Source: Eubacteriales bacterium
GTDB lineage: Bacteria > Bacillota > Clostridia > Oscillospirales > CAG-272
NCBI GenBank assembly: GCA_045533435.1
Contig: JAZSHT010000104.1
Coordinates: 1,590-65,589 of the forward strand
Direction of reading: 5' to 3'
DNA: 64,000 bases
The notes under the pieces were generated by a model that did not search any database, was not told the origin of the DNA, and saw nothing but the letters and a program-made list of their open reading frames with translations. The translations under genes were made by a program, and so were the position numbers. This document shows, one piece after another, positions 3,028 through 59,381 of this stretch. Each line of letters begins with the position of its first letter. Within the stretch, counting starts at the first letter, position 1.

Positions 3028-5607
3028 ATGACTCAAATGATGCTACAATATCTCGAGATAAAAAAGCAATATAAGGATTTTATATTGTTTTACCGTCTTG
3101 GAGATTTTTATGAAATGTTCTTTGATGATGCTATTACTGCATCAAGAGAGCTTGAATTAACATTAACAGGTAGAGACTGCGGAGAGCCTGAAAGAGCGCC
3201 AATGTGTGGCGTACCATACCATAGCTGCGAGGGCTATATCGGCAAGCTTATCTCCAAGGGCTATAAGGTTGCAATTTGCGAGCAAATGGAGGACCCCTCA
3301 CAAGCAAAGGGCATTGTAAGGCGTGAGGTTGTAAGAGAAATTACTCCGGGTACAGTAGTTGAAACCAACCTTTTAACTGAAAATAAAAACAACTATCTTT
3401 GCTCACTTTACTTTGAGGGAGATAGCGTAGGCGTATGCTTTGCCGATGTTTCAACAGGCGAAATCTATGCTACTACCATTGAAAATGAGCAAGCTAAGCT
3501 TTTAAATGAGCTTGGCACATATGCGCCAAAGGAAATCATAACCAACATACCTAAGCTTGCAGGCGGATATATTGGCGAGTTTGCAAAATCAAGACTTAGC
3601 GCGCTTTGCGGCTTTGAAATGACAGAGTATTTTAACAAAAACGAGTGCGATGACAGAGTATTTTGTCAATTCGGTCAGGACTTTATAAACAAATACGAGT
3701 CTGACAGCCACCTAATGTGTGCCATCGGCGCAATCTTAGAGTACATATTAAAAACTCAAAAAACAGATATTTCATATATCAACAACATAAGCATTTACGG
3801 TGAGGGACAATATCTTGAAATGGACCTTAACACTCGCCGTAACCTTGAATTATGCGAGTCAATGAGAACTAAGGAAAAGCGCGGAAGCCTTTACTGGGTT
3901 CTTGACAAAACAAAAACATCAATGGGCGCAAGAATGCTTCGCCATTTCGTTGAGCATCCGCTAATTGATGTGCAAAGAATTATTGCCCGCCAAGGCGCAA
4001 TAAACACCCTTTATTCTAATATGGTGCTAAGAGATGAAATCTCAAAGCTTTTATCAAGCGTTCTTGACCTTGAAAGACTTATGACAAAGGTAGTATATGG
4101 CACCGCGAATGGAAAGGATGCAAGAGCAATCGCATCCACAATAAAGGTAATTCCTGAAATTAAAAACCTTCTCTATACAGTAAACGATAGAGAGCTTTCC
4201 GAAATTAGAGAAAATCTTGATACCCTTGAGGATATCTATACACTAATTGATGATATGCTTATAGAGCTTCCACCATTCTCTGTAAGAGAGGGCGGCTTTA
4301 TTAAGGATGGCTACAATAAGGATATTGACTATCTCCGTACAGTAATGAGTGATGGTAAGGGCTGGATTTCTAAAATTGAAGAGGGAGAAAGAGAGCTCAC
4401 AGGAATTAAAACACTTAAAATAGGCTATAACAGAGTATTTGGCTACTATATAGAGGTAACAAAATCCTTTATAAACCAAGTGCCTGATAGATATATAAGA
4501 AAGCAAACATTATCCAACTGTGAAAGATACATCACAGAGGATTTAAAAAATATGGAATCAACGGTGTTAGGAGCAAAGGACAAGCTCTGTACCCTTGAAT
4601 ATGAGCTTTTTGTAGCACTTCGCGCCAAGCTTGAGGAAAACCTAAAGCGTGTTCAAAAATCTGCAAATATGCTTGCAAAATTAGATACCTATATCTCACT
4701 TGCCGAGGTAGCAATTAAGAATAACTATGTTTGCCCTGAGGTTGATTATAGCGATATAATCGACATTAAGGACGGCAGACATCCGGTAGTTGAGCAATTT
4801 GTTAAGGATAGCTATTTTGTTCCAAACGACACCTATCTTAATACCACAAGCGACCGCTTAGCGCTTATTACAGGACCGAATATGGCAGGTAAATCAACAT
4901 ATATGCGCCAAAGTGCTTTAATAGTTTTAATGGCACAAATCGGCTCATTTGTTCCCGCTAAGCAAGCAAGAATAGGCATAGTAGATAAATTATTTACAAG
5001 AGTAGGCGCATCTGATGACTTAGCGTCAGGTCAGTCAACATTTATGCTTGAAATGACCGAGGTTGCCTACATTCTTGCAAATGCAACTAAAAAGAGCTTT
5101 ATCATTTATGATGAAATCGGCAGAGGCACATCAACCTATGATGGTATGAGCATAGCAAGAGCTATTGCCGAATATACCGCAGGCAAAAAAATCGGTGCAA
5201 AATCAATGTTTGCCACCCACTACCACGAGCTAACATCACTTGAAAACGGACAAAATGGTATAGTAAACTACAATATTGCCGCTAAAAAGCGTGGCGAGGA
5301 TATTATATTCCTTCGTAAAATCGTTAAAGGTCCAACAGATGATAGCTACGGTATTGAGGTTGCCAAATTAGCAGGCGTGCCAAATGAGGTAGTTAAACGC
5401 GCAAAGAGTATTCTTGCTGAAATGATAGAAAATGGCGTTGTTACCGAAAAAGCTCCTAAACCAAAAACAACCGAAATCGGTATGGAAATGTCCTTTGAGG
5501 ATATGAGTGTTTACGAGGCAGCCGACAGAATTAAAAAGGTAGATATAAACACATTAACACCAATCGAGGCCATGAACTTCATATTTGAGCTTAAAAAGCT
5601 TTTTTAG
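3028..5607 (+). CDS. mutS: DNA mismatch repair protein MutS
   Basis: 859 aa with N-terminal mismatch-binding motif (FYRLGDFYEMF) and Walker A GPNMAGKST. The TAG stop is the first unit of a TAGCCGT array. Confidence 0.97.
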   Translation: MTQMMLQYLEIKKQYKDFILFYRLGDFYEMFFDDAITASRELELTLTGRDCGEPERAPMCGVPYHSCEGYIGKLISKGYKVAICEQMEDPSQAKGIVRREVVREITPGTVVETNLLTENKNNYLCSLYFEGDSVGVCFADVSTGEIYATTIENEQAKLLNELGTYAPKEIITNIPKLAGGYIGEFAKSRLSALCGFEMTEYFNKNECDDRVFCQFGQDFINKYESDSHLMCAIGAILEYILKTQKTDISYINNISIYGEGQYLEMDLNTRRNLELCESMRTKEKRGSLYWVLDKTKTSMGARMLRHFVEHPLIDVQRIIARQGAINTLYSNMVLRDEISKLLSSVLDLERLMTKVVYGTANGKDARAIASTIKVIPEIKNLLYTVNDRELSEIRENLDTLEDIYTLIDDMLIELPPFSVREGGFIKDGYNKDIDYLRTVMSDGKGWISKIEEGERELTGIKTLKIGYNRVFGYYIEVTKSFINQVPDRYIRKQTLSNCERYITEDLKNMESTVLGAKDKLCTLEYELFVALRAKLEENLKRVQKSANMLAKLDTYISLAEVAIKNNYVCPEVDYSDIIDIKDGRHPVVEQFVKDSYFVPNDTYLNTTSDRLALITGPNMAGKSTYMRQSALIVLMAQIGSFVPAKQARIGIVDKLFTRVGASDDLASGQSTFMLEMTEVAYILANATKKSFIIYDEIGRGTSTYDGMSIARAIAEYTAGKKIGAKSMFATHYHELTSLENGQNGIVNYNIAAKKRGEDIIFLRKIVKGPTDDSYGIEVAKLAGVPNEVVKRAKSILAEMIENGVVTEKAPKPKTTEIGMEMSFEDMSVYEAADRIKKVDINTLTPIEAMNFIFELKKLF

Positions 5608-5646
5608 CCGTTAGCCGTTAGCCGTTAGCTGTTAGCGAGTAACTCT
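5605..5646 (+). repeat. heptamer array, class TAGCCGT (about 5 units: 3 x TAGCCGT, TAGCTGT, TAGCGAG)
   Basis: Read directly. The first TAG is the mutS stop codon. Confidence 0.9.
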
Positions 5647-5694
5647 AACGCCTTTTCCTACCCATTCCCCCCCTACTACGAAAGGAAGGTCAAA

Positions 5695-7703: not shown

Positions 7704-8840
7704 ATGTTAAAAATATTAAAAACTGACGGCAGAGCAAGAAGATGTGAATTTGAAACAGTTCACGGAACAATTCAAACACCTGTCTTTATGAATGTAGGCA
7801 CATGCGCCGCAATCAAGGGCGGTATATCCTCAATGGACTTAAAGGATGTAAAATGTCAGGTTGAATTATCAAATACATACCACCTACACATTCGCCCGGG
7901 TGATAGACTTATTCACGATTTAGGCGGACTTCATAAGTTTATGAATTGGGATAAGCCAATCTTAACCGATAGCGGCGGATTTCAGGTTTTCTCCCTTGCT
8001 CAATTACGCAAAATAACCGAAGAGGGCGTTAAATTCGCATCTCACATTGATGGTAAGCGTATTTTTATGGGTCCTGAGGAATCAATGCAAATTCAATCAA
8101 ACCTAGGCTCAACAATCGCTATGGCATTTGATGAATGTATTGAAAACCCTGCCAAATATGACTATACCAAGCAGTCCTGCGACCGTACAGTAAGATGGTT
8201 AAAGCGTTGTAAGGTAGAACTTGACAGACTTAATTCACTTCCCGATACAATCAATAAAAACCAAATGCTTTTCGGTATTAACCAAGGTAGCACATACGAG
8301 GATTTAAGAATTAAGCATATGCAAGAAATTGCAGAGCTTGACCTTGACGGCTACGCAATCGGTGGTCTTGCCGTAGGCGAGGAAACTGAGGAAATGTATC
8401 GTATAATTGACATCGTAGAGCCACATATGCCTGTAAATAAGCCAAGATACCTAATGGGCGTAGGCACACCCTGTAACATTCTTGAAGCGGTACATCGCGG
8501 TATTGACTTCTTTGACTGTGTAATGCCATCAAGAAACGCAAGACACGGTAACCTCTTTACATGGCACGGTAAAATGAATATCATGAACGAAAAATACCGT
8601 GATGATGCGAAGCCAATAGATGAAAACTGTAAATGCCCTGCTTGTCAGCATTATTCAAGAGCATATATAAGACATCTTATCAAGGCAAAGGAAACACTCG
8701 GTATGCGCCTTTGCGTGCTTCATAACCTCTATTTCTATAATGACCTTATGGAAAAAATCAGAGAAGCGCTTGATAATGACTACTTTGAAAGCTTCTACCA
8801 AAAGTATCGCAATATCTTAGGCGATAGAAGCACTAACTAG
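7704..8840 (+). CDS. tgt: queuine tRNA-ribosyltransferase (tRNA-guanine transglycosylase)
   Basis: 378 aa with TPVFMNVGT, DSGGFQV and the Zn site CxCxxC...H (CKCPACQHYSRAYIRH). The TAG stop is followed directly by 6 x TGGTCAG. Confidence 0.96.
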   Translation: MLKILKTDGRARRCEFETVHGTIQTPVFMNVGTCAAIKGGISSMDLKDVKCQVELSNTYHLHIRPGDRLIHDLGGLHKFMNWDKPILTDSGGFQVFSLAQLRKITEEGVKFASHIDGKRIFMGPEESMQIQSNLGSTIAMAFDECIENPAKYDYTKQSCDRTVRWLKRCKVELDRLNSLPDTINKNQMLFGINQGSTYEDLRIKHMQEIAELDLDGYAIGGLAVGEETEEMYRIIDIVEPHMPVNKPRYLMGVGTPCNILEAVHRGIDFFDCVMPSRNARHGNLFTWHGKMNIMNEKYRDDAKPIDENCKCPACQHYSRAYIRHLIKAKETLGMRLCVLHNLYFYNDLMEKIREALDNDYFESFYQKYRNILGDRSTN

Positions 8841-8882
8841 TGGTCAGTGGTCAGTGGTCAGTGGTCAGTGGTCAGTGGTCAA
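8838..8882 (+). repeat. heptamer array, class TGGTCAG (TAG + 5 x TGGTCAG + TGGTCAA)
   Basis: Read directly. Starts at the tgt TAG stop. Followed by hairpins CCTTCTCC-TTGA-GGAGAAGG (8886-8905) and GTCAAC-TTT-GTTGAC (8907-8921). Confidence 0.95.
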
Positions 8883-8954
8883 CAGCCTTCTCCTTGAGGA
8901 GAAGGTGTCAACTTTGTTGACGGATGAGGTGTAAATAAAGAAAGGGAAAAAACT

Positions 8955-49344: not shown

Positions 49345-50415
49345 ATGCTTCAATATATGTCTTGCCGAGATGCTGCCGAAAGATGGAATATATCACAACG
49401 CAGAGTTTCTGTTTTATGCGCTGAAAATCGCATACCCAATGTTGCTATGCTCGGCAATATGTGGATAATTCCCATAAATGCCGAAAAGCCAACGGATGCA
49501 CGAAAAAATAACGGTGCAAAGCCAACTAATGAAAAAGCTCATCCTTTTATAAAATGGGCAGGTGGTAAAACTCAGCTTTTAGATGTACTTAAAAGTAATT
49601 TACCAAGTGGTATTGGTACTACTATTAGAAAATATGCAGAGCCTTTTGTTGGTGGCGGTGCATTCCTTTTCTCTATACTCGAGGAATACAACTTTGAGGA
49701 AATTTACATTAGCGATAACAATAAAGAGCTTATGAATGTTTATGTCGCCATTAGGGATAACTGTAACCAGCTTTTAAATGCTCTCAACACCTTGCAAAAC
49801 GAATATAATGGACTTAGTGCCGAATTGCAAGAGAAATTTTATTATGAAAAGCGCGAGGAATTTAATACAGTTGAATTGACCGATAAAACAAGTGTTCAAA
49901 AGGCTTCATTGTTTATTTTCTTAAATAAATCTTGTTTTAATGGTTTATTTAGGGTTAACAAAAAGGGCAAATATAATGTTCCTTTTGGAAAACACAAGTC
50001 TGTTTCAATTTGCGATAGCGATAATTTAACTAAAATTTCTGCTATGCTACAAAATGTTATAATAAAGGCTTGCGATTATCAAGAGGTTATGAGCTTTGCT
50101 GATAGCTCAACTCTTGTATATTTTGACCCACCATATAGACCCTTGAATGTAACATCAGGCTTTACCTCATATACCGAGGATGATTTTTCTGATAAAAATC
50201 AAATAGATTTAGCAAATTGCTTCAAGGCTCTTTCAAAAAAAGGCGTTAAAGTAATGCTTAGCAACTCAGACCCAAAAAACACAAACGAAAATGACAATTT
50301 CTTTGACGATTTGTATGCAGATTTTAACATTTTGCGTGTTGAAGCCTCTCGTATGATAAACAGTAAAGGCTCATCAAGAGGAAAAATCAAAGAGCTTTTA
50401 ATTAAGAATTATTAA
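49345..50415 (+). CDS. Dam-type N6-adenine DNA methyltransferase (GATC-type) with N-terminal HTH domain
   Basis: 356 aa. The first ~50 aa are HTH-like (CRDAAERWNISQRRVSVLCAENRIPN), followed by the Dam pattern KWAGGK...EPFVGGGA...YFDPPY. Confidence 0.9.
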   Translation: MLQYMSCRDAAERWNISQRRVSVLCAENRIPNVAMLGNMWIIPINAEKPTDARKNNGAKPTNEKAHPFIKWAGGKTQLLDVLKSNLPSGIGTTIRKYAEPFVGGGAFLFSILEEYNFEEIYISDNNKELMNVYVAIRDNCNQLLNALNTLQNEYNGLSAELQEKFYYEKREEFNTVELTDKTSVQKASLFIFLNKSCFNGLFRVNKKGKYNVPFGKHKSVSICDSDNLTKISAMLQNVIIKACDYQEVMSFADSSTLVYFDPPYRPLNVTSGFTSYTEDDFSDKNQIDLANCFKALSKKGVKVMLSNSDPKNTNENDNFFDDLYADFNILRVEASRMINSKGSSRGKIKELLIKNY

Positions 50416-50424
50416 GGAGTAGAT

Positions 50425-51303
50425 ATGAAAAGAAATTTTAACGAATGGCTTGCTAATTTCAGAGAAAGCATAGCTGACTACAAGTATTATATTGATTTTG
50501 ACAAAGTACATAGAAATGTTGATAGCATAAAGATTGAGTTGAATATATTAAATACACTTGTAGGCTCTAAAAACATTGAAGCTGACTTTATAAACTTAGT
50601 AAAGAAATATCCTGAAACATTAAAGGTTATTCCTATTCTACTTGCAAAGAGAGAAAGTGAAATATATTGCCAAGATCAAAATTTAGCACGAACATTTGAA
50701 TTTTCCAAAAATATTCCCATAGATGCAGATGAGAAATTTTTCAAAGAGTATTGCTATTTTATGAGAGAAACAGGGCTTTTTGATCTATTACAAAATCGCA
50801 TTATAAGCAACTTGGTTGATTATGTAACAGGCGTTGAAACAGGCTTGGATTCAAACGGCAGAAAAAACCGTGGCGGTCATTTAATGGAAAATTTAGTTGA
50901 AAGCTATATTCAACAGGCTGGATTTATAAAAAATGAAACTTATTTTAAAGAAATGAACCTTTCAGATATAGAACATCTTTGGGGAATTGACTTATCTGCA
51001 ATTTCAAACACAGGTAAAACGGAAAAACGATTTGATTTTGTAGTGAAAACCAACAACAAAATTTATGGAATAGAAGCAAACTTTTATTCAAGTGGCGGCT
51101 CTAAGCTAAATGAAACAGCAAGAAGCTATAAAAATATAGCTATTGAGTCAAAAGAAATAGATGGGTTTGAATTTGTATGGTTTACCGACGGAAACGGTTG
51201 GAAATCTGCAAGACACAATTTAGAAGAAACCTTTGATGTAATGGAACACATTTATTCTATTGCCGACTTAGAAAACGGCATAGCAAACGAATTATTTAAC
51301 TGA
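50425..51303 (+). CDS. DpnII/MboI-family type II restriction endonuclease (GATC)
   Basis: 292 aa, collinear with my recollection of DpnII: ...LNILNTLVGSKNIE..., NLVDYVTGVETGLDSNGRKNRGG, KRFDFVVK, NFYSSGGSKLNETARSYK. Confidence 0.88.
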   Translation: MKRNFNEWLANFRESIADYKYYIDFDKVHRNVDSIKIELNILNTLVGSKNIEADFINLVKKYPETLKVIPILLAKRESEIYCQDQNLARTFEFSKNIPIDADEKFFKEYCYFMRETGLFDLLQNRIISNLVDYVTGVETGLDSNGRKNRGGHLMENLVESYIQQAGFIKNETYFKEMNLSDIEHLWGIDLSAISNTGKTEKRFDFVVKTNNKIYGIEANFYSSGGSKLNETARSYKNIAIESKEIDGFEFVWFTDGNGWKSARHNLEETFDVMEHIYSIADLENGIANELFN

Positions 51304-51304
51304 T

Positions 51305-52042
51305 ATGGCAAAGAAAATACCTTTACAACCAGAAAATTTTGAGCTTGAAACAAATACTGTTTGGAGCTTTCCAAATAGGGGAAAATGGGCAACTCACGAT
51401 GCCAAATACCGCGGAAATTGGTCGCCTTATATCCCAAGAAATATAATTTTAAGATATTCAAACGAGGGTGATACAGTTCTTGATCAATTTGTTGGCGGTG
51501 GTACAACTATGGTTGAAGCCAAGCTGACAGGCAGAAATGCAATAGGAGTTGATATTAACCCAAATGCAGTTGAATTGTCTTTGAAAAAATGTAATTTTGA
51601 ATACGAATCAAGTTCACAAATTAAAATAATGCAAGGTGATGCAAGATATCTTAATTTAGAGAACGAAAGCATTGATCTTATTTGCACTCATCCACCCTAT
51701 GCTGATATTATCAAGTATAGCGAAGATATTAAAGGCGATTTGTCGCACCTTAAAATAAAAGATTTTTTAACAGAGATCTACAAGGTAGCGCAGGAAAGCT
51801 ATCGAGTTTTGAAAAAAGGCAAGTTTTGTGCTATTTTAATGGGAGATACCCGCAAAAACGGCATGGTTCAACCTCTCGCTTTTGAAACAATGCGTCTTTT
51901 TGAACTTGTTGGATTTAAGACAAAAGAAATTATAATAAAAGAACAACATAATTGTAAAGCAACGGGTTTTTGGAAAACTAATAGCATAAAACACAATTTT
52001 TTGTTACTTGCCCACGAATATTTATTTGTATTCAAAAAATAA
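51305..52042 (+). CDS. second SAM-dependent DNA methyltransferase of the R-M cassette
   Basis: 245 aa with motif I FVGGGTT and motif IV THPPY. Its start is 1 nt after the endonuclease stop codon. Confidence 0.82.
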   Translation: MAKKIPLQPENFELETNTVWSFPNRGKWATHDAKYRGNWSPYIPRNIILRYSNEGDTVLDQFVGGGTTMVEAKLTGRNAIGVDINPNAVELSLKKCNFEYESSSQIKIMQGDARYLNLENESIDLICTHPPYADIIKYSEDIKGDLSHLKIKDFLTEIYKVAQESYRVLKKGKFCAILMGDTRKNGMVQPLAFETMRLFELVGFKTKEIIIKEQHNCKATGFWKTNSIKHNFLLLAHEYLFVFKK

Positions 52043-52069: not shown

Positions 52070-52099
52070 AACGCATACATCTTTTCGGTGTATGCGTTT
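52070..52099 (+). repeat. 30-bp direct repeat copy 2
   Basis: Identical to 49192-49221. Also serves as a bidirectional terminator for 51305-52042 (+) and 52101-52433 (-). Confidence 0.95.
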
Positions 52100-52940: not shown

Positions 52941-52974
52941 CTGCTGACCGCTGACCACTGATCACTGACCACTA
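52941..52974 (-). repeat. heptamer array (reverse complement: TAG TGGTCAG TGATCAG TGGTCAG CGGTCAG CAG)
   Basis: This TAG is the stop of the minus-strand gene 52972-53847. Inverted counterpart of the array at 49133-49163. Confidence 0.92.
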
Positions 52975-53847
52975 AATATTTATTGTTTGATTTGCGTAAA
53001 TATCCACACATGTGTCGCTATTTTCAAGGATTAAGGACACAGGGGTGTCAAAAATTTCAGTTGGCAAGTCGGTTTTGAGTGTAACCTGTGTGCCGTTTTC
53101 GGTGTTTTCAACTACTAACTCGGAGTTATCACGAAGGTAAATATATTTTACCATATCGTTATATGAGCAGAGCCAAATGTTATTTTTGTTTGCTTGCTCA
53201 GCAAGGTACATACATTCAGGCAAGAATGTTTCGTACTTTTGGGCGTGGTGGGTATCCTGCTCCTTTTTAGAAAGCCAATGGTTCATTTGAACTGTCCAAC
53301 CGCCCTCGCTTATTGTCTTATCAATATTATCAATATATGGCTGTAAATCGTAAACAAAGCGAGTTGTAAATGTGCCAACATCATATAAATTCATGTTATA
53401 TGTGTCGTTAATTCTGTCATTTCCGTTTCGGTTTGAATAGTAATATTCCTTTAAAATGTTCCAACCCTCCTGTGTGCTACCGCCACCGGGAGTTACATAT
53501 GCAATTACAGGTGTGCCGTAAATTTCCTCAAGTTTTTCCTTAGTTTCCTTAGCATCCTTATGTAATTTTTCGGGGTCGGTTTCGCCATTATAGCATAAGC
53601 AATGGTCAATACTGTGTCCGCAAATATCAAAATAGCCCTCGTTAATAAGGTCCTTCCACATTTTAATTATCCATTCGTGCAAGAAGCCAACAGTTTGAGC
53701 AGAGGTAATTTTGATTTTTTGTCCTGTCTTTTCGTAAACCTCTTTTAAATTTTCGTATGCATCAAGAGTTGACTCGCGATAGCATCCATCATCAAATACA
53801 AAGCTGTATGCACTTTTTGCGTTGTTATAGTAAGTTGCAATTTTCAT
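52972..53847 (-). CDS. polysaccharide deacetylase-like protein
   Basis: 291 aa with FVFDDG and GHSIDH motifs. The TAG stop is followed, in gene orientation, by a TGGTCAG array. The 5' UTR carries the CCCTAT array plus CGACTGAAAGGAG. Confidence 0.7.
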   Translation of the reverse strand: MKIATYYNNAKSAYSFVFDDGCYRESTLDAYENLKEVYEKTGQKIKITSAQTVGFLHEWIIKMWKDLINEGYFDICGHSIDHCLCYNGETDPEKLHKDAKETKEKLEEIYGTPVIAYVTPGGGSTQEGWNILKEYYYSNRNGNDRINDTYNMNLYDVGTFTTRFVYDLQPYIDNIDKTISEGGWTVQMNHWLSKKEQDTHHAQKYETFLPECMYLAEQANKNNIWLCSYNDMVKYIYLRDNSELVVENTENGTQVTLKTDLPTEIFDTPVSLILENSDTCVDIYANQTINI

Positions 53848-53874
53848 AATTGTTTTACTCCTTTCAGTCGTAAA

Positions 53875-53910
53875 CAGGGAATAGGGTATAGGGAATAGGA
53901 GATAGGGAAA
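53875..53910 (+). repeat. heptamer array, class TAGGGTA (CAGGGAA TAGGGTA TAGGGAA TAGGAGA TAGGGAA)
   Basis: Lies in the 5' UTR of the minus-strand gene and reads CCCTAT-type in that mRNA. Adjacent to CGACTGAAAGGAG (reverse complement of 53858-53870). Confidence 0.9.
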
Positions 53911-53961
53911 TTTGCCTTACTCCTATTTCATTATAAATATTCTAACATTTTATAATATAAG

Positions 53962-53980
53962 TGTCAATAAAATATTGACA
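53962..53980. promoter_or_regulatory. palindrome TGTCAATAAAATATTGACA carrying back-to-back -35 boxes of divergent promoters
   Basis: Plus strand: TTGACA (53975-53980), 17 nt, TATTAT (53998-54003). Minus strand: TTGACA (reverse complement of 53962-53967), 17 nt, TAGAAT (reverse complement of 53939-53944). Confidence 0.6.
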
Positions 53981-54170
53981 AATAGATAAAAAAGTTGTAT
54001 TATGCTTTGGGAATAATTTTTTAACTAGCAGATGAACACTGACCAGTAATATGCAATCTTCGGTTGATTCCATACAATCCTTGACTGATTGCATATGACC
54101 TTCGGTCAATTCCATACAATGCTTTGCGTTGATTACATACACATCTGCGATGTGATTGCGACTTTGTCGC

Positions 54171-54204
54171 ATCCCTATCCCCTATCCCCTATATCCTATC
54201 CCCC
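54171..54204 (-). repeat. heptamer array, CCCTATC-type (ATCCCTA TCCCCTA TCCCCTA TATCCTA TCCCCC)
   Basis: Lies in the 5' UTR of the transporter gene. Followed by AAAG and then CGACTGAAAGGAG (54209-54221). Confidence 0.9.
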
Positions 54205-54226
54205 AAAGCGACTGAAAGGAGCGAAA

Positions 54227-55345
54227 ATGAAGACCGTATATAAATTTTTTGCAGGTCATGCTGTTTTAACGGTTGCAATGATTATTGCGCTTGTTACAAT
54301 GGTAATTGTGCCGCCTGATGTTACATACTTTGACTACATAGACTTTAAAACGCTTTTCTGTCTTTTTGCTACGCTTCTTGTGGTGTGTGCTTTAAAGAAT
54401 ATTCGCTTTTTTACCTTAATTTCAAGAAAGATTGTTCACGCTACGCCTAACCTTAGAGTATGCGTTTTGGCGCTTTTGTATATCACATTTATTGGCTCAC
54501 TTTTTATTGCCAACGATATGGCGCTTATTACATTTTTGCCCCTTGGATATTTCGTATTAAGCGACACAGGTAACCATAAATATATGGCTTGGGTGTTTGT
54601 TTTACAGAATATTGCCGCAAATTTAGGTGGAATGCTAACACCATTTGGCAATCCTCAAAACCTATATTTATACACTAAATTTAACATACCAACTCTTGAA
54701 TTTATGGGTATTATGGTATTTCCGTTTTTGCTTGCAGTTTTAATGCTAACATTATCCGTGCTATTTTTCCCAAAAACAAAAATGGAATTGTCCATAAGCG
54801 ATGATATAATTGAGTTTAAGCCTAAGCGCACCGCAATTTACATAGTGCTTTTTGCGGTATCAATCCTTGCGGTATTTTCAGTAATTCATTATTTAATTGC
54901 CGCTGTTATAATCGCAGTTGGAATTTTTATGCTTGATAAAAAAGCATTTTTAAAGGTTGACTATCCCTTGCTTTTAACATTTTTAATGTTCTTTATTTTT
55001 GCGGGAAATATGTCAAGAATAGACTTAATTCGTGATTTTATGTCGGGACTTTTAGAAAAAAACACACTTTTAGTGTCCGCTTTATCATGTCAGTTTATTT
55101 CAAATGTGCCATCCGCGGTGTTATTATCTCAGTTTACCGATAACTATAAATCACTTTTGCTTGGCGTTAATATCGGTGGCACAGGCACAATTATAGCATC
55201 CTTAGCAAGCTTAATCACATTTTCGGAGTTTTCACGCTATCAGCCTGAGAATAAAAAGAAATATTTTGGCGTTTTCACGCTTCTAAATGTAATATTTTTG
55301 ATGGTTCTCTTAATTTTTTGTGTTTTTCTTGAAAAAATTTTATAA
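54227..55345 (+). CDS. ArsB/NhaD-superfamily ion transporter (CitMHS-like permease)
   Basis: The ATG at 54227 has RBS GAAAGGAG (MKTVYKFFAG...). The track start at 54089 would translate the heptamer array and leader. Polytopic membrane protein. Confidence 0.75.
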   Translation: MKTVYKFFAGHAVLTVAMIIALVTMVIVPPDVTYFDYIDFKTLFCLFATLLVVCALKNIRFFTLISRKIVHATPNLRVCVLALLYITFIGSLFIANDMALITFLPLGYFVLSDTGNHKYMAWVFVLQNIAANLGGMLTPFGNPQNLYLYTKFNIPTLEFMGIMVFPFLLAVLMLTLSVLFFPKTKMELSISDDIIEFKPKRTAIYIVLFAVSILAVFSVIHYLIAAVIIAVGIFMLDKKAFLKVDYPLLLTFLMFFIFAGNMSRIDLIRDFMSGLLEKNTLLVSALSCQFISNVPSAVLLSQFTDNYKSLLLGVNIGGTGTIIASLASLITFSEFSRYQPENKKKYFGVFTLLNVIFLMVLLIFCVFLEKIL

Positions 55346-55491: not shown

Positions 55492-57318
55492 ATGATTAGA
55501 GACGACTTAAGAAATGTAGCAATTATTGCTCACGTTGACCACGGCAAAACAACTCTTGTTGACGGTATGCTTCAGCAAGGTGGCGCATATCACGAAAACC
55601 AAGCAACTACTGACAGAGTAATGGACTCTAACGCTCTTGAAAAGGAAAGAGGAATTACTATCCTTGCAAAAAATACTGCTATTCACTATGGCGACAAAAA
55701 AATCAATGTAATTGACACCCCAGGCCACGCTGACTTTGGCGGCGAGGTTGAAAGAATTCTTAAAATGGTTAACGGTGTTATCCTTCTTGTTGATGCAGCA
55801 GAGGGACCAATGCCACAAACAAGATTCGTTCTTCGCAAGGCTATGGAATTAAATCACAGAATTATCGTTGTTGTTAATAAGATTGACCGTCCTGATGCTC
55901 GTGTAACTGAGGTTATTGATGAGGTTTTAGAGCTTCTTATTGACTTAAATGCAACTGATGAGCAGCTTGACTCTCCAATGCTTTTCTGCTCAGGTAGAGC
56001 AGGCACAGCGTCATTCTCTCCTGATGTAGAGGGCGAAAACTTAATTCCACTTCTTGATACAATCGTAAATTACATTCCAGCTCCAGAGGGAGAAGAGGAT
56101 GAAAGCCTTCAATTACTCGTTTCATCTATTGACTATAACGAGTATGTTGGTAAAATCGGTGTAGGTAGAATTGAAAGAGGCTCACTTAAGGTAAACCAAG
56201 AGGTTACAGTATGTAACTTCCACTCAGATGAAGCTCCAAGAAGAGCAAAAATCGTTTCAATTTATCAATTTGATGGTCTTTCCCGTACACAGGTACAAAG
56301 TGCAACAGTTGGCGATATCGTATGCTTCTCAGGTGTTGAAGAGCTTTCAATCGGCGATACACTTTGCTCTGCTGGTAATGTTGAGCCACTTGAATTTGTA
56401 AAGGTTTCAGAGCCTACTCTTGAAATGACATTTGCAGTTAACGATAGCCCATTTGCAGGCAAAGAAGGTAAATTCGTAACATCCCGCCAAATTAGAGACC
56501 GCCTTTACAAGGAAACACTTAAGGATGTATCTCTCCGTGTAAGCGATGGCGACACTACCGACTCATTTAGAGTTGCAGGTAGAGGCGAAATGCACTTATC
56601 AATCCTTATTGAAACAATGCGCCGTGAGGGCTTTGAGCTTTGCTGCTCAACTCCAAGAGTGCTTTATAAAACAATTGATGGCATTTTACATGAGCCAATG
56701 GAAAGAGTTTCTATTGATGTACCGGCAGAGAGCGCAGGCGCAGTTATTCAAAAGCTTAGCGCAAGAAAGGGCGAGCTTTTAGAAATGGACCCAACAGGCT
56801 CAAGAACTAAGCTTGAATATATTATTCCATCAAGATGCTTACTTGGTTACAGAAACGAGTTTATGACAGATACAAAGGGCGAGGGCATTTTAAATACACT
56901 CTTTGATGGCTATCAACCATTCAAGGGAGAGGTTGTAACAAGATTTACAGGCTCACTTATCGCATCCGAAACAGGCGAAGCAACATCATACGGTCTATTT
57001 AAGACACAAGACAGAGGCGCTATGTTTATCGGCGTTCAAACTCCTGTTTATGAGGGAATGATTGTTGGCGAATGTCCAAAGATGGAGGATATCGTTCTTA
57101 ATGTTTGCCAAAAGAAGCACTTAACTGCTATTCGTTCAAAGGGCGCAGATGAGGCTTTAATTCTCGTTCCACCAAAGCAATTATCCCTTGAGCAAGCTAT
57201 TGAGTATATTGCGGATGATGAGCTTATTGAGGTAACACCTAAGTCAATTAGATTAAGAAAGAAAATTCTTGATACTGCATTAAGACTTAAGGCGCAAGCG
57301 AAATTAAAAAAGCAGTGA
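55492..57318 (+). CDS. typA: translational GTPase TypA/BipA
   Basis: The ATG at 55492 has RBS AAAGGAG ([24 protein letters not shown]). The TGA stop lies inside the first TGATCAG unit of an array. Confidence 0.95.
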
Positions 57319-57350
57319 TCAGTGGTCAGTGGTCAGTGTTCAGCAGCTAG
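57313..57350 (+). repeat. heptamer array (CAG TGATCAG TGGTCAG TGGTCAG TGTTCAG CAG CTAG)
   Basis: The typA TGA stop (57316-57318) is part of the first unit. Confidence 0.9.
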
Positions 57351-57382: not shown

Positions 57383-57404
57383 GCCACTCTGTGAGTGGCT
57401 TTTG
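57383..57404 (+). terminator. typA terminator
   Basis: GCCACTC-TGT-GAGTGGC plus TTTTG. Confidence 0.65.
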
Positions 57405-57506: not shown

Positions 57507-58754
57507 ATGTTTTCAGAAAAGATATTAAATATAGCATCTGAGGCGGAAAGGGAGCTTGCTCCGATTTTTGCTAAGATTGATGAAATTTCATTTAAAAATA
57601 CACAAAGAGTGCTTGAAAGCTTTAAGGAATTTAAGGTTGCCGAGAGTATGTTTGCAGGCACAACTGGTTATGGCTACGATGATATTGGCAGAGACACACT
57701 TGATAAAATTTATGCCGATGTTTTCGGAGCAGAAAGTGCATTTGTAAGACACTCAATAGCCAACGGCACAAGCGCACTTACAATCGGATTGTTTGGACTT
57801 TTAAGACCAAATGATGTGCTTTTATCAGTTACAAATCAACCATATGATACTCTTTGCGAGGTAATCGGCATTAACGGTGCAAACGGAGATGGCTCACTTG
57901 CGGATTTTGGTGTAAAATACGATCAGGTTGACTTTAAAAACGAGGAAATTGACTTTGAGGGAATTGAGAAAAAGCTCAATGAATATGGAGATAGCGTTAA
58001 GGTTGTTTTCATTCAACGCTCAAAGGGATATTTAAATAGACCGACACTTACAATAGACCAAATTGGCGAAATTTGCGATTTTGTTCACAAAAGAAGCAAA
58101 TCGTATGTGGTTGTTGACAACTGCTATGGCGAATTTTGCGAGGATAGAGAGCCTTGCCATGTGGGAGCAGATATGATAATCGGCTCACTTATTAAAAATC
58201 CAGGTGGCGGAATTGCCGAAAGCGGTGGATATATTGCAGGCACAAAAAGAGCAGTTGAGTTAGCTTCCTACCGTTTAACCTCTGCCGGCACAGGATGCGA
58301 GGTAGGTGCATCTTTAGGTCAAAACAGAAATATGTTCAAGGGATTTTTCTTAGCACCTCACATTGTGGCTCAGGCTATTAAAACTGCACATTTTGCCGCA
58401 TATGTGTTTGAAAAATTAGGCTTTGATGTATCTCCAAGGTATAACGAAATGCGCTCGGATATTATCCAAACAATTAAGTTTGGATACGCTGATGGTCTTA
58501 TTAAATTCTGCCAAGGAATTCAAAGCGCATCCCCTGTTGACTCTTATGTAACTCCTGTGCCATGGGCAATGCCAGGCTATCAGGATGAGGTAATTATGGC
58601 AGCAGGCGCATTTACTCAAGGCTCATCAATAGAAATTTCAGCAGACGGTCCTATTCGCATACCATATACCGCATTTTTACAAGGCGGTCTAACCTTTGAA
58701 AGCGGAAAAATCGCAATATTAACAGCAGCTTCGCTGCTAGGGGATAGGATATAG
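57507..58754 (+). CDS. YnbB / aluminium-resistance family PLP-dependent (Met gamma-lyase-like) protein
   Basis: 415 aa with the typical FAGTTGYGYDDIGRDTLD N-terminal region. The last 4-5 codons and the TAG stop are encoded by the TAGGGGA/TAGGATA array. Confidence 0.85.
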   Translation: MFSEKILNIASEAERELAPIFAKIDEISFKNTQRVLESFKEFKVAESMFAGTTGYGYDDIGRDTLDKIYADVFGAESAFVRHSIANGTSALTIGLFGLLRPNDVLLSVTNQPYDTLCEVIGINGANGDGSLADFGVKYDQVDFKNEEIDFEGIEKKLNEYGDSVKVVFIQRSKGYLNRPTLTIDQIGEICDFVHKRSKSYVVVDNCYGEFCEDREPCHVGADMIIGSLIKNPGGGIAESGGYIAGTKRAVELASYRLTSAGTGCEVGASLGQNRNMFKGFFLAPHIVAQAIKTAHFAAYVFEKLGFDVSPRYNEMRSDIIQTIKFGYADGLIKFCQGIQSASPVDSYVTPVPWAMPGYQDEVIMAAGAFTQGSSIEISADGPIRIPYTAFLQGGLTFESGKIAILTAASLLGDRI

Positions 58755-58772
58755 GATATAGGGGATAGGGAT
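58738..58772 (+). repeat. heptamer array (TAGGGGA TAGGATA TAGGATA TAGGGGA TAGGGAT)
   Basis: Spans the end of the ynbB-like CDS (stop TAG at 58752-58754) and the entire 18-nt spacer up to the rlmH ATG at 58773. Confidence 0.92.
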
Positions 58773-59255
58773 ATGTTGAATATCAAAATTATAGCCACAG
58801 GCGATGTAAAGGAAGCATATTGGCAAAACGCCATTAAGGAATATCAAAAAAGACTTGGCGCTTGGTGCAAAATTGAGGAAATTATTTTAAAGGAAGAAAG
58901 ACTTCCCGATAATCCCACACAATCACAAATTGACAAAGCCCTTGAATGTGAGGAAAAGCGAATTTTAGAAAAGCTTTCCTCAAAATCATATGTGATTGCA
59001 ATGTGCGTTGAGGGTAAGCAGTTATCAAGCGAGGAGCTTGCCTCAAAGATAACCGATATAACAAATTTAGGCAAAAGCGAGATAGTTTTTATCATCGGCT
59101 CATCCTTTGGTCTATCCAAAAAGGTCAAGGAAGTGTCTGATTTTAAGCTCTCAATCTCAAAATTAACCTTCCCACATCAATTATTAAGAGTTATTTTACA
59201 CGAAACGATTTATAGGTCATTAAGTATTATTTATGGTACGAAGTACCATAAATAA
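58773..59255 (+). CDS. rlmH: 23S rRNA (pseudouridine1915-N3)-methyltransferase
   Basis: 160 aa in the SPOUT family (IGSSFGLS...LSISKLTFPHQL). The start codon directly follows the heptamer array. Confidence 0.92.
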   Translation: MLNIKIIATGDVKEAYWQNAIKEYQKRLGAWCKIEEIILKEERLPDNPTQSQIDKALECEEKRILEKLSSKSYVIAMCVEGKQLSSEELASKITDITNLGKSEIVFIIGSSFGLSKKVKEVSDFKLSISKLTFPHQLLRVILHETIYRSLSIIYGTKYHK

Positions 59256-59287
59256 GCGGTCAGCCGTTAGCAGTTAGCTGTTAGCAG
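59256..59287 (+). repeat. heptamer array, class TAGCCGT (GCGGT CAGCCGT TAGCAGT TAGCTGT TAGCAG)
   Basis: Starts immediately after the rlmH TAA. Confidence 0.88.
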
Positions 59288-59353
59288 ATTTACTTATGAT
59301 TTTTTAACAATTTATTCAATGTTTTCAACTCAATAAATCAAAATTGTTACTTG

Positions 59354-59381
59354 CTGTAAGCTGGCGGCTGGCGGCTATAAC
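59354..59381 (-). repeat. heptamer array, reverse-type (CTGTAAG CTGGCGG CTGGCGG CTATAAC)
   Basis: Partially complementary to 59256-59287, separated by a 66-nt AT-rich loop. Confidence 0.8.

Follow-up and report, generated by a model that had tools for sequence, protein, structure and literature searches.

The stretch of DNA analysed here (the window, 64,000 nucleotides from an uncultured Clostridia lineage) carries 19 tandem arrays of 7-nt units placed at gene ends. The arrays hold a common polarity with respect to the neighbouring coding sequence, can pair across spacers, turn over among relatives and, in one spacer, co-vary between the two arms. They are heptanucleotide simple-sequence repeats of the STRR or long-SSR kind. 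As to their role, we tentatively favour structural modules in transcribed untranslated regions, acting in cis on RNA.

Heptanucleotide arrays in three unit classes

The window was searched with a strict lag-match scan (at least 4 units, at least 76% self-match), using 30 dinucleotide-preserving shuffles as the null. The scan yielded 15 period-7 arrays where the shuffles gave 0.1 on average (maximum 1), and no other period from 4 to 15 was in excess. Two-unit repeats were at chance level (18 observed, 17.7 expected). Tandem Repeats Finder (TRF) reported period-7 arrays at 18 of the 19 positions originally noted (period 14 at 40359). The remaining one, 49133-49163, is readable by eye as TAGTGGT CAGTGGC TAGTGAT CAGTAGT TAG. 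Identical copies are present in L205 and L206, two independent assemblies of one close relative, and four other relatives have arrays at the same sites. Therefore, the arrays are not an assembly artefact, a possibility that the original prediction had named as decisive. They match no Rfam family, as had been anticipated.

Most arrays in the window have 4-5 units. Sequence inspection showed the three unit classes already described, all in YAG-N4 phase; the YAG phase is fixed, the other four positions vary, and the consensus across classes is YAG-K-K-N-T. The class 1 unit CAGTGGT is also the cross-phylum consensus. The density is uneven, with 2 arrays in 1-35 kb and 17 in 35-60 kb, in agreement with the first description.

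Position and polarity at gene ends

In 18 of the 19 arrays, the YAG strand runs 5′ to 3′ away from the nearest coding sequence (p = 8e-5). At gene 3′ ends, the YAG-N4 strand begins at the stop codon or supplies it, upstream of the terminator. At 5′ ends, it is the complementary strand that stops short of the start codon, by 17-27 nt in five of six arrays. The predicted placement, YAG at 3′ ends and its complement before ribosome-binding sites, held in 18 of 19 arrays, the exception being array 40354. The stop codon is supplied by the array in at least seven cases, and TAG stops are found in 7 of the 12 genes with a 3′ array as compared to 3 of the 40 without (Fisher p = 5e-4). Three 5′ arrays lie downstream of promoter-like sites and six 3′ arrays between the stop codon and a separate predicted terminator hairpin, promoter and terminator calls being consensus matches only. 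The genes beside the arrays have housekeeping roles (mutS, tgt, typA, rsmG, citrate synthase). The idea that the arrays are themselves terminators is not supported, as separate predicted intrinsic terminators follow the 3′ arrays.

Two 3′ arrays lie in the first 35 kb. The class 2 array 5605-5646 (plus strand, (TAGCCGT) x4.7) opens with the TAG stop codon of mutS, mutL starting 48 nt farther on. The class 1 array 8838-8882 (plus, TAG(TGGTCAG)x6, 100% matches) opens with that of tgt and is followed by a separate hairpin at 8886-8907. Further on, the class 3 array 35236-35263 (plus, AGGGTAT type) overlaps the final codons and TAG stop (35243-35245) of a beta-lactamase-like gene, 33773-35245. A degenerate class 2 array, 36559-36597 (plus), begins a few nucleotides past the stop of a small metal-binding ORF, with a predicted bidirectional terminator downstream (36644-36673). 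The ORF 39721-40335 is bracketed by two arrays: 39637-39671 (plus, class 2), 13 nt past the stop of ORF 37923-39623, and the exception to the polarity rule, 40354-40388 (minus, class 1-like, complementary CTGACCA orientation), 18 nt past the stop of the bracketed ORF and upstream of a predicted terminator.

Class 1 array 49133-49163 (plus) begins with the TAG stop of citrate synthase and has a predicted terminator downstream, at 49191-49221. The minus-strand deacetylase gene 52972-53847 has its TAG stop at the beginning of array 52941-52974 (class 1, read on the minus strand), which lies upstream of the predicted terminator of this gene (52910-52885). The class 1 array 57313-57350 (plus) contains the TGA stop of typA (57316-57318), a terminator hairpin being predicted near 57383-57403. 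The class 3 array 58738-58772 (plus) fills an entire junction: it encodes the final 5 codons and TAG stop of 57507-58754, supplies a Shine-Dalgarno-like GGGGA to the SPOUT methyltransferase gene and ends at the ATG (58773) of that gene.

Three further arrays lie at gene 5′ ends. The class 2 complement 47698-47735 (minus, CTGACGG/CTAACGG) ends 26 nt before the citrate synthase start. The class 3 arrays 53875-53910 (plus; CCCTAT-type on the minus strand) and 54171-54204 (minus, complement CCCTATC) belong to the 5′ UTRs of divergent genes. The former is 27 nt from the start of the deacetylase gene, downstream of a promoter-like site (53967-53939), and the latter ends 22 nt before the start of a citrate-transporter (CitMHS) gene, downstream of another (53975-54003).

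Two earlier claims had to be qualified. Arrays had been said to lie outside gene bodies; three of them (35236, 57313 and 58738) overlap the last 6-17 nt of coding sequence. The claim stands for array 54171, because the listed ORF 54089-55345 truly starts at ATG 54227, giving a 372-aa protein of orthologue length. Arrays preceding genes had also been placed just before ribosome-binding sites in complement orientation, which does not hold for 58738, in YAG orientation directly before the start codon, nor for 59354, located 238 nt from the mnmG start.

Inverted pairs, turnover and occurrence elsewhere

Whenever two arrays share a spacer in the window, they are inverted, of the same class and able to form a stem of about 30 bp. 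One such pair separates the genes for nicotinate phosphoribosyltransferase (NAPRTase) and YmdB: the G-rich 5′ arm 41950-41983 (plus, class 1) lies 2 nt after the TAA stop and the 3′ arm 42073-42103 (minus, class 1 complement, CTGACCA) ends 17 nt before the YmdB start codon, with a promoter-like site at 41989-42016 in the loop. Between the metallo-beta-lactamase-fold (MBL) gene and rsmG, the 5′ arm 45188-45218 (plus, class 1) is 6 nt beyond the MBL stop, and the 3′ arm 45330-45356 (minus, class 1 complement) ends 22 nt before rsmG, followed by CGACTGAAAGGAG, which contains the Shine-Dalgarno site. Upstream of mnmG, the 5′ arm 59256-59287 (plus, class 2) begins immediately past the stop of 58773-59255 and is paired with 59354-59381 (minus, class 2 complement). 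Pairing of the arms across the spacer, as first proposed, is supported by predicted RNA stems of -59.6 (z -5.4; NAPRTase-YmdB), -57.3 (z -3.8) and -41.1 kcal/mol (z -3.5). The loops between arms measure 89-260 nt and contain putative promoters and terminators. In the divergent spacer 53848-54226, the arms belong to different transcripts and therefore their match cannot serve one RNA hairpin. The polarity is a property of the spacer rather than of the direction of transcription. It applies at either end of genes and also between the divergent genes; a pair with its G-rich arm first stays so when reverse-complemented.

Folding was also predicted for single arrays. Four of five leaders with a 5′ array fold weakly (-4 to -9 kcal/mol, z -1.5 to +0.6). 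The exception is the class 2 leader preceding citrate synthase (-23 kcal/mol, z -1.3). Class 1 3′ arrays are predicted to self-fold. The NAPRTase-YmdB arms co-vary, being both class 1 in the window and L209 and both class 2 in L207, and the predicted stem is kept in all three (-59.6, -87.4 and -60.5 kcal/mol).

In relatives at 85-96% amino-acid identity, arrays occupy the same sites with a different copy number or unit class. The citrate synthase 5′ array is one 7-nt unit shorter in L205/L206 than in the window, a change by a whole unit that agrees with the expansion by slippage first suggested. At the 3′ site of this gene, the same base change is seen in every unit between the window and L205/L206, and the class is 1 in the window, 2 in L205/L206 and 3 in L209. 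The typA 3′ site holds class 1 in the window and L209, class 3 in L001 and nothing in L125, and the MBL to rsmG junction has five different fillings in five relatives. L210, which lies inside the array-bearing clade (87-90% identity), has zero arrays in 21 kb. L125, L002 and L003 have tight junctions at the array sites of the window, and junctions of 4-60 nt suffice in relatives for the array-adjacent housekeeping genes. Judged from these sequence comparisons, the turnover and the array-free relative indicate that the arrays evolve fast, are driven by slippage and can be dispensed with at any single gene.

The original view that Firmicutes have no equivalent did not survive: the same arrays with the same layout occur in two Oscillospiraceae MAGs (L047; L100 and L104) and in four close relatives of the window. 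About ten other phyla also have the (TGGTCAG)n unit with the same polarity, as do other Oscillospiraceae MAGs and viral contigs (405 arrays in 547 kb), and the exact class 1 unit was found in contigs of Calothrix, Anabaena, Moorena, Microcoleus and Coleofasciculus. For class 1 arrays of other phyla, TGGTCAG outnumbers CTGACCA 43 to 19 at 3′ ends, whereas CTGACCA outnumbers TGGTCAG 33 to 5 at 5′ ends. In non-class-1 arrays, the gene-leaving strand has more G than C in 94 cases and less in 22, and AGT is enriched 50 to 8 on this strand. The polarity at 3′ ends is 99 to 21. Among related arrays that neighbour each other, inverted pairs open with the G-rich arm 60 times and with the other arm 3 times. 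Some pairs in other phyla have non-complementary units and still keep the polarity.

Possible roles, origins and known relatives

On the reading that we tentatively favour, the arrays arise, resize and homogenise through replication slippage and template switching between arms. They are retained solely where putative transcription units are untranslated, close up against coding sequences. The G-rich YAG strand begins at the stop codon or within it, ahead of the predicted intrinsic terminator, and the complementary, mostly G-poor strand ends just 5′ of the Shine-Dalgarno site. As structure modules acting in cis on RNA, the 5′ arrays would provide an unstructured leader beside the ribosome-binding site, class 1 3′ arrays may self-fold via G.U pairs between stop codon and terminator, and paired arrays may join into a long-range stem of about 30 bp when transcription reads through. 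This stem could then be cut by a double-strand RNase such as RNase III or, alternatively, act as a stabiliser or insulator between adjacent transcription units. This reading takes the arrays to be transcribed and the stems to form in vivo, and it supposes some benefit to the cell. A filter at the RNA level accounts for the 5′-end orientation better than for the 3′-end orientation, which weighs against this reading, as do the array-free L210 inside the clade, the tight junctions of L125, L002 and L003, the MBL-rsmG junction filled in five ways, the divergent arms in separate transcripts and the polar, non-complementary pairs of other phyla. In addition, arm-to-arm template switching could keep complementarity without selection.

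Nearly as likely as a structural role in RNA is a neutral or selfish origin, and it is possible that the arrays are a by-product of a lineage-specific mutational regime with no function of their own. Here, 7-nt slippage loops would be unseen by mismatch repair, template switching would occur at inverted repeats, and purifying selection would spare arrays only in untranslated stretches and in a harmless orientation. Rapid gain, loss and class swapping in the 85-96% identity relatives, one of them array-free, are consistent with this, as are the 4-60 nt junctions with which adjacent housekeeping genes manage, the uneven density in the window, the array-filled viral contigs and the slippage proposal of Mrazek, as relayed in PMC4679880 and PMC4692102. 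However, local slippage predicts a new unit per locus, yet the 19 loci share just three related classes, and about ten phyla show the consensus YAGTGGT. Two-unit seeds are not in excess, the 3′ polarity (99 to 21) and arm order (60 to 3) would need a selective filter on both kinds of UTR, and the mutS and mutL genes are intact in the window.

HutP reads UAG-N4-UAG-N4-UAG and the TRAP site is (G/U)AG-N2-3 repeated 11 times; the window arrays share with them NAG triplets at a fixed period, 7 nt for HutP. We consider it rather unlikely that the arrays are periodic sites for an oligomeric single-stranded RNA- or DNA-binding protein that reads one YAG(T) every 7 nt and serves as a global post-transcriptional regulator, or for a row of cold-shock or S1-type OB-fold domains of about 7 nt each. 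The fixed YAG phase with four variable positions, the usual 4-5 units and the keeping of sites while classes turn over would fit, and the patchy phylogeny would suit a factor gained and lost. S1, Csp and CsrA have been proposed for TAACTGA repeats (PMC4679880), and an unidentified partner in Nostoc (10.1101/2022.06.06.494920). However, the 5′ arrays show the complementary strand, so that one RNA-binding protein cannot read both kinds, and many units have CAG rather than UAG. The window has no HutP, TRAP or Csp gene, and its gene for a PC4-like single-stranded DNA-binding protein is also present in array-free L210. To our knowledge, HutP is restricted to Firmicutes, whereas the arrays occur in many phyla. 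HutP and TRAP sites lie in a single operon leader, have a dedicated protein and overlap an antiterminator or terminator, unlike the dozens of sites seen here, which lie at either end of genes and of which half are on the complementary strand.

An action at the DNA level is improbable, be it through a cruciform or slipped structure, a class 3 G-quadruplex or a polar barrier, or as a signal for recombination or repair that brackets the regulatory part of each spacer; so is installation by an enzyme, for instance by telomere-like addition to 3′ ends at breaks. It would explain why polarity follows the spacer and not transcription, at both gene ends and in the divergent spacer. The G-rich strand runs 5′ to 3′ toward the spacer centre with the same unit on both sides, as expected from addition to two 3′ ends, and class 3 units match G4-forming GGGNATN repeats (PMC4692102). 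Yet the 89-260 nt loops, holding putative promoters and terminators, make cruciform extrusion unlikely, and classes 1 and 2 are unable to form G4. No candidate reverse transcriptase, primase-polymerase or nuclease is encoded in the window and nothing comparable is known to have been reported.

The REPIN-like mobile element of the original prediction, or a MITE-like one, moved by a RAYT or IS200-type Y1 transposase, is very improbable. Inverted pairs in spacers near gene 3′ ends and many genomic copies recall the REP, BIME and REPIN elements of Proteobacteria, which are also intergenic and structure-forming, often lie at gene 3′ ends inside transcripts and are proposed mRNA stabilisers or insulators. 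However, REPs are palindromes of 20-40 nt that carry a GTAG or CGTC tag (definition from PMC3733652), which the tandem heptamer is not; loops and flanks are unrelated between loci, single arrays are common and target duplications are absent. The window encodes no Y1/RAYT transposase, no reverse transcriptase and no other candidate. The arrays may be REP-like in their working; without palindrome, tag or RAYT, they do not belong to the REPs. Least likely of all are phase-variable contingency loci switching neighbouring genes on or off by copy-number change: whole-unit changes do occur between relatives, but a 7-nt step outside coding sequence and the -35/-10 spacer alters neither frame nor promoter geometry, and the neighbours are housekeeping genes.

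The comparison with STRRs made at the outset is apt. The units CCCCAGT, TTGGTCA and CAACAGT were reportedly described in heterocystous cyanobacteria by Mazel et al. in 1990. Like them, the arrays studied here are short tandem runs of a 7-nt unit that recur in many spacers, draw on a few unit types in any one genome and have inverted copies giving hairpins between cistrons. A CAGT or GGTCA core is shared, STRR2 (TTGGTCA) matching the class 1 rotation GTGGTCA at 6/7 positions. The units are nevertheless not identical to STRR1-3, and they are found in a Clostridia lineage that is uncultured and has about 36% G+C. We know of no statement, for STRRs, of the rule that arrays abut or supply the stop codon or of the polarity rule.

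The implied novelty is not supported. Hairpin-forming STRRs between the cyanobacterial cistrons hupS and hupL were proposed to raise transcript stability or couple translation (PMC2670836). The convergent pairing and closeness to the upstream ORF were described by Rehm et al. in 2015 for Xanthomonas GGGAATC and Nostoc GGGGA(T/C)T repeats, about 90% intergenic, mostly of about 4 units, with 70-75 convergent inverted pairs per genome and great differences in length and sequence among related species (PMC4692102). Their G-rich strand is nearer the ORF on the 5′ side (28 nt vs 160 nt; the 28-nt mean is that of the convergent Xanthomonas pairs), which is the polarity of the window arrays, and the class 3 units GGGAATA, GGGGATA and GGGTATA fit their consensus GGGANTN. 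They are, however, treated as G-quadruplex formers, which classes 1 and 2 cannot be, and their hosts are Proteobacteria and Cyanobacteria.

Related cases are the TAACTGA direct repeats of marine Beggiatoaceae, some Cyanobacteria and Bacteroidetes, arrays of 2-6 units a few nucleotides upstream of start codons with a proposed post-transcriptional role and one indirect repeat among 170 sets (MacGregor 2015, PMC4679880). They resemble the window arrays in lying upstream of starts, in their patchy distribution and in the ACTGA core common to the 5′ arrays (CCACTGA), but have a single unit type, mostly at 5′ ends, and almost no inverted pairs. Heptanucleotides are the commonest long-unit SSR in many prokaryotic genomes, with units of 5-11 nt (LSSR) sporadic across phyla and slippage as the proposed origin (Mrazek et al. 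2007, as cited in PMC4679880 and PMC4692102). As presented there, LSSR is a statistical category that does not address unit sequence, polarity or pairing.

Overall, the kind of element is not new: the arrays mark a new host lineage for a repeat class long known from cyanobacteria and Xanthomonas, and represent a lineage-specific expansion within a small clade of uncultured Clostridia.

Period, units and position of the arrays

Tandem Repeats Finder detected period-7 arrays in the window at 18 of the 19 predicted positions, one of them being given as period 14, and the nineteenth array, at 49133, was evident by eye in the sequence. A lag-match scan (at least four units, at least 76% self-match) was controlled with 30 dinucleotide-preserving shuffles. 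It returned 15 period-7 arrays in the window as compared to a mean of 0.1 in the shuffles, with no excess at any other period from 4 to 15. Two-unit repeats occurred at the chance rate, so the arrays do not simply grade into shorter repeats. The heptamer arrays of the original prediction were therefore confirmed, and its division into three unit classes was borne out by the sequence. The class 1 unit is CAGTGGT, class 2 is TAGCCGT or CAGCGGT, and class 3 is TAGGGTA, TAGGGGA or TAGGATA, so that few unit types occupy many dispersed loci (19 arrays in three related classes over 64 kb). An assembly artefact, which the original prediction had named as a risk, was rejected because the arrays are shorter than a sequencing read and are present in independent assemblies.

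Array density is uneven. From 35 to 60 kb, about 13 of 19 spacers carry an array, as compared to two of about 16 in the first 35 kb, and the difference noted originally between these two regions holds. GC skew is reversed in the array-poor stretch from 9.8 to 33 kb, whose genes are of accessory type (glycoside hydrolase, CotH, DUF6259). Housekeeping genes of the window include miaB-mutS-mutL-tgt, typA, rsmG and mnmG; the miaB-mutS-mutL-tgt content, together with nearest homologues from uncultured Clostridia, Eubacteriales and Oscillospiraceae MAGs, places the window in the Clostridia.

The 19 arrays are confined to spacers, apart from overlaps of no more than 17 nt with the end of a coding sequence. 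At gene 3' ends, 12 arrays read on the sense strand as the G-rich YAG-N4 strand (W), and begin from 17 nt inside the coding sequence to 13 nt past the stop codon. The array supplies the stop codon of mutS, tgt, citrate synthase, a minus-strand deacetylase gene and three others, and TAG is the stop in 7 of the 12 genes with a 3' array as compared to 3 of 40 without (p = 5e-4). Five of the 3' W arrays, as well as the array at 40354, lie upstream of a separate intrinsic-terminator hairpin and should therefore be in the 3' UTR. Upstream of genes, six arrays read on the sense strand as the complement of W (C). In five of these six, 17-27 nt separate the array end from the start codon, the array stopping just short of the Shine-Dalgarno site; good promoter-like sites were observed upstream of three of the six. 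In the divergent spacer 53848-54226, each of the two 5' UTRs has its own class 3 C array.

These positions follow one rule, that the W strand reads 5' to 3' away from the nearest coding sequence, in 18 of the 19 arrays (p = 8e-5). The exception, 40354, brackets a 204-amino-acid ORF together with the array at 39637. This ORF (39721-40335), inside a W..C bracket (39637-40388; W arm first), has no Pfam match and is missing at this place in the relative L207. Since W..C reads W..C on either strand, polarity characterises the spacer, whichever way transcription runs. A CGACTGAAAGGAG motif directly follows three 5' arrays of classes 1 and 3 and runs into the Shine-Dalgarno site (45357-45375, 54205-54223 and, on the minus strand, 53848-53874); at these sites CGACTGA resembles a final class 1 unit (CCACTGA) in degenerate form.

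Array pairs and their turnover among relatives

In each of the four window spacers with two arrays, the arrays share one class and are inverted with W leading. The three pairs belonging to a single transcript are predicted to form long-range stems of -59.6, -57.3 and -41.1 kcal/mol (z from -5.4 to -3.5), in agreement with the earlier suggestion that arrays sharing a spacer can pair across it. Four of the five folded leaders with a 5' C array are predicted to have hardly any structure (-4 to -9 kcal/mol, z from -1.5 to +0.6); the class 2 leader before citrate synthase is the fifth, with a predicted -23 kcal/mol (z -1.3). Class 1 W arrays are predicted to fold on themselves via G.U pairs. No T run follows the array pairs, and distinct terminator hairpins stand 30-60 nt downstream of 3' arrays; on both counts the arrays were rejected as intrinsic terminators, in which a U tract comes straight after a G+C-rich hairpin.

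Relatives were gathered via two protein searches and contig look-ups. The window forms a clade with L207/L208, L209, L210 and L211, at 85-92% identity over three proteins, and L002 and L003 lie outside it (74-77% identity). Array-bearing relatives have 3-8 arrays per 10-18 kb: eight in the 16.6 kb searched of L209, four in 18.6 kb of L211 and three to four in 10.6 kb of L207. No array was found in the 21.3 kb searched of L210 (GCA_045645405.1), nor in about 21 kb each of L002 and L003, and almost none in about 885 kb of more distant Clostridia contigs (49-81% identity). Among the assemblies of relatives, GCA_054288305.1, GCA_054298155.1, GCA_017505905.1 and GCA_052843915.1 are array-rich, and GCA_017453255.1 is array-free like that of L210. 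A metagenome scan with the protein encoded at 57507-58754 gave no strain-level relative, the best match being 81% identical.

Orthologous sites were then compared. The 5' array of citrate synthase has five units in the window and four in the relatives L205 and L206. Its 3' array is class 1 in the window, class 2 in L205/L206 and class 3 in L209, and the same T/C difference separates the window from L205/L206 in every unit. The typA 3' array is class 1 in the window and L209, class 3 in L001 and absent from L125, where the junction is 10 nt. Between the nicotinate phosphoribosyltransferase and YmdB genes, a class 1 W..C pair is found in the window, a class 1 pair with other copy numbers in L209 and a class 2 pair in L207, both arms switching class together; L211 has class 3 in direct orientation, L210 a 9-nt remnant only and L002 nothing. 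The stem is kept in all three genomes having the pair (predicted -59.6, -87.4 and -60.5 kcal/mol, z from -4.2 to -8.6). The junction of the metallo-beta-lactamase-fold (MBL) gene and rsmG holds a class 1 W..C pair in the window and four other fillings in four relatives. It measures 4 nt in L210, and the inserts of the remaining three are unrelated: in L209 (7393-7519) two G+C-rich arms of 22 nt forming a perfect inverted repeat (GTAGGGGAGGGGTTATCCCTCC with its complement), in L207 (9180-9351) a 150-nt sequence with small hairpins, and in L211 (12040-12111) a class 3 array serving as Shine-Dalgarno site.

Overall, these differences between orthologous sites indicate that the arrays are derived insertions with fast turnover, and that no particular gene needs them. 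As judged from the sequences compared, positions of the same kinds acquire arrays repeatedly, and complementarity between paired arms is retained.

Other features were observed in a relative and in the window. At 6160-6330 of L207, a tandem duplication of about 109 nt includes a complement-type class 2 array, leaving the spacer with one G-rich arm and two complementary arms. A different inserted element occupies the 212-nt spacer 44196-44407 between the GHMP kinase and MBL genes, which abut or overlap in L207, L209 and L211 and are separated by 37 nt in L210. Its left side consists of about three tandem units of 22 nt (GTTATGAA...GCTAnGCnAA) and its right side carries their complement (..CTCATAAC..), with a predicted fold of -79.4 kcal/mol (z -8.1); in the hairpin after the element, the Shine-Dalgarno site of the MBL gene is predicted to be paired. 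A DpnII-type GATC restriction-modification island (49345-52042; D12 adenine methylase, DpnII endonuclease and a second N6/N4 methylase) is bracketed by two copies of the terminator hairpin AACGCATACATCTTTTCGGTGTATGCGTT, at 49191-49221 and 52070-52098; it reflects a recent insertion or deletion, since L205 is without it and L206 has it. Two-copy tandem repeats of 31-32 nt at 37133-37194 and 62210-62268 lie upstream of the family-less ORFs 37266-37889 and 62505-63458 and may be operator-like sites.

Known heptanucleotide systems and wider distribution

STRR (short tandemly repeated repetitive) heptanucleotide arrays have reportedly been known since 1990, and the units that Mazel is said to have described in that year as STRR1-3 were CCCCAGT, TTGGTCA and CAACAGT. 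Membership in STRR1-3 in the strict sense was rejected: the window units CAGTGGT, TAGCCGT and TAGGGTA differ, the nearest matching STRR2 at 6 of 7 positions, and the host must be a heterocystous cyanobacterium whereas the window is from Clostridia. In the wider sense of heptanucleotide long simple-sequence repeats or STRR-type elements, the window arrays are tandem 7-nt repeats, dispersed and intergenic, and change length by whole units, as seen in the 5' array of citrate synthase and in the arm copy numbers of the nicotinate phosphoribosyltransferase-YmdB spacer in the window and L209. As relayed by two later papers, heptanucleotides are the commonest long-unit simple-sequence repeats in many prokaryotes, and slippage has been put forward as the way they arise (Mrazek 2007, via PMC4679880, PMC4692102). 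Cyanobacterial STRRs are 7-bp repeats forming hairpins between cistrons such as hupS and hupL, and have been proposed to stabilise transcripts or couple translation (PMC2670836). In Xanthomonas, about 185 GGGAATC arrays, mostly of four units and about 90% intergenic, include 70-75 convergent inverted pairs and vary between species; the mean distance of their G-rich strand is 28 nt to the ORF at its 5' side and 160 nt to the ORF downstream (PMC4692102), the same polarity as that of the window arrays. The GGGANTN unit, conserved at positions 1-4 and 6 (Rehm 2015, PMC4692102), has its counterpart in class 3 only (rotated units GGGAATA, GGGTATA and GGGGATA, at 35236, 53875, 54171 and 58738), and a convergent inverted pair with the G-rich strand near the ORF on its 5' side (Rehm 2015) was found at 53875/54171. 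Beggiatoaceae carry TAACTGA arrays just upstream of start codons (PMC4679880); in that orientation the unit contains ACTGA, as do the 5' arrays of the window.

The original prediction had described a structure-forming family likened to STRRs that may expand by slippage and possibly act as a terminator or REPIN-like element. Its likeness to STRRs, pairing and whole-unit change stood; a REPIN unit is discarded for want of a palindrome, and a terminator role because separate hairpins are present. CRISPR, already discounted there, was rejected since repeats of 24-48 nt with unique spacers of about the same length are expected and the units are 7 nt and contiguous. At gathering score, Rfam matched only a tRNA-Pro in the window and no family at the arrays. 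We found no published description of such arrays in Clostridia or other Firmicutes, and nothing relevant in the literature on the unit sequence itself. Because heptamer arrays are described elsewhere, the window extends a known kind of element to a new host lineage.

An exact scan for (TGGTCAG)x3 over one genome per GTDB species gave at least 120 loci of 8 kb each. The matches listed include Acidobacteriota, Planctomycetota, Chloroflexota, Verrucomicrobiota, Bacteroidota, Cyanobacteria, Nitrospinota, Actinomycetota, delta- and gamma-Proteobacteria and two Oscillospiraceae MAGs. Period-7 arrays built from other units are also numerous in the 8-kb loci of these matches, with as many as 16 in a single locus. 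With genes called crudely as longest ORFs, 70% of the 3' arrays among the matches listed lie within -5 to +10 nt of a stop codon. In the other phyla, again among the matches listed, class 1 arrays read W in 43 cases and C in 19 at 3' ends, as compared to 5 and 33, respectively, at 5' ends. For the non-class-1 arrays among them, the strand that runs out of the gene is richer in G than in C in 94 cases and poorer in 22, and is enriched in AG (96:26), GT (90:23) and AGT (50:8); the anchored logo of their units, Y-A-G-T/g-G/t-G-T, is the class 1 unit. Related neighbouring arrays among the matches listed are inverted with W first in 57 cases (60 including the window) versus 3 in the reverse order, and the loops between neighbours in other phyla, mostly 7-90 nt in these matches, are not conserved. 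The Oscillospiraceae loci share the window layout: stop, W array, loop, C array, Shine-Dalgarno site, ATG. Array-rich organisms that can be cultured include Nostoc PCC 7120, Xanthomonas campestris and Acidobacteria bacterium AB60.

The class 1 unit also occurs in 68 IMG/VR viral stretches (L212-L279), with 405 period-7 arrays in 547 kb and an array bias of the same sign as in the window, though weaker. The (TGGTCAG)x3-bearing contigs, of which L214 has six exact class 1 matches in 10 kb, reach a density of 7.4 arrays per 10 kb and may be true phages of array-rich hosts or misfiled chromosomal pieces.

Origin and possible role of the arrays

The positions of the arrays are expected to be transcribed, and their orientation to the coding sequence is strongly constrained. 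Next to ribosome-binding sites they are mostly in the G-poor orientation, predicted to be largely unstructured, and paired arrays can form stems of about 30 bp with co-varying arms. As the best explanation, we tentatively favour an origin by slippage with a role as cis RNA structure modules in UTRs. Arrays would arise by slippage and be homogenised by slippage and template switching between arms. Where active at all, they may act as unstructured leaders, as 3' structures, or as stems that lie between transcription units and either insulate them or serve a double-strand RNase as substrate.

An origin that is neutral or selfish throughout, with selection only as a filter, would agree with the dispensability and rapid turnover of the arrays; set against the shared unit consensus and the strong 3'-end polarity, it is possible but on balance unlikely. 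One conserved, horizontally spread system could also install and maintain the polar (YAGTGGT)n arrays at coding-sequence boundaries, through an array-maker enzyme or a reader protein; it would be at work in ten or more bacterial phyla and their phages, with L210 as a lineage that has since lost it. We regard this as a rather unlikely reading. A PC4/YdbC-like single-stranded-DNA-binding protein gene is present in the window (36683-37156, minus strand), and does not track the arrays since it is kept in relatives including the array-free L210.

The regular 7-nt period might mark a periodic protein-binding site, which seems improbable. A HutP site has two sets of three UAG triplets with 4-nt spacing in a terminator-overlapping leader, along with a hutP gene. 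Such an antitermination site was rejected: period and TAG fit some arrays only, the arrays follow stop codons or, as complement, precede ribosome-binding sites, and no HutP match was found in the window. A DNA-level element or enzymatic installation is very doubtful; telomere-like addition at breaks was rejected because it predicts polarity and matching arms but not functional loops of 89-260 nt, as in the window. A REPIN-like mobile element is highly improbable. REP/REPIN elements require an imperfect palindrome of 20-40 nt with a GTAG or CGTC tag, the arrays being direct tandem heptamers, and no RAYT (Y1 transposase) gene was found among the scanned window ORFs. Phase variation is hardly plausible. 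A contingency repeat would switch expression by its unit number from within a coding sequence or from between the -35 and -10 elements, and was rejected because the arrays occupy no reading frame and are preceded by the promoter-like sites.

None of the ideas tried accounts for the polarity of all three classes. Rho (rut) sites on the C-rich inward-reading strand were rejected, as the arrays are short and Cyanobacteria, to our knowledge, lack Rho. Three-frame stop modules were dropped too: read inward, classes 1 and 2 contain CTGA or CTAA, and read outward, the TAG-type units contain TAG, but class 3 and class 1 behave oppositely, leaving no single rule. Shine-Dalgarno or anti-Shine-Dalgarno mimicry fits class 3 only, and self-complementarity of TGGTCA via G.T or G.U as the reason for the consensus fits class 1 only. 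Primase initiation trinucleotides (CTG/CTA) and Chi-like GT-rich polarity were dropped as short-motif coincidences.

These results add a Gram-positive, gut or rumen-type lineage to the hosts of heptanucleotide arrays. Several regularities are legible from sequence alone: the arrays adjoin coding sequences, whose stop codon they often provide, their W strand has a fixed polarity, leading away from the gene at either end, and their pairs are inverted, W first, with co-changing class. The consensus unit and the rules of position, polarity and pairing recur in distant phyla and in viral contigs. Of most use are these sequence rules, combined with a clade that has both array-rich genomes and, at about 90% protein identity, one array-free genome, since this makes a comparative search possible and opens a direct route to any factor responsible. 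If there is no such factor, the arrays would be a clean case of a mutational process and UTR selection shaping bacterial spacers.
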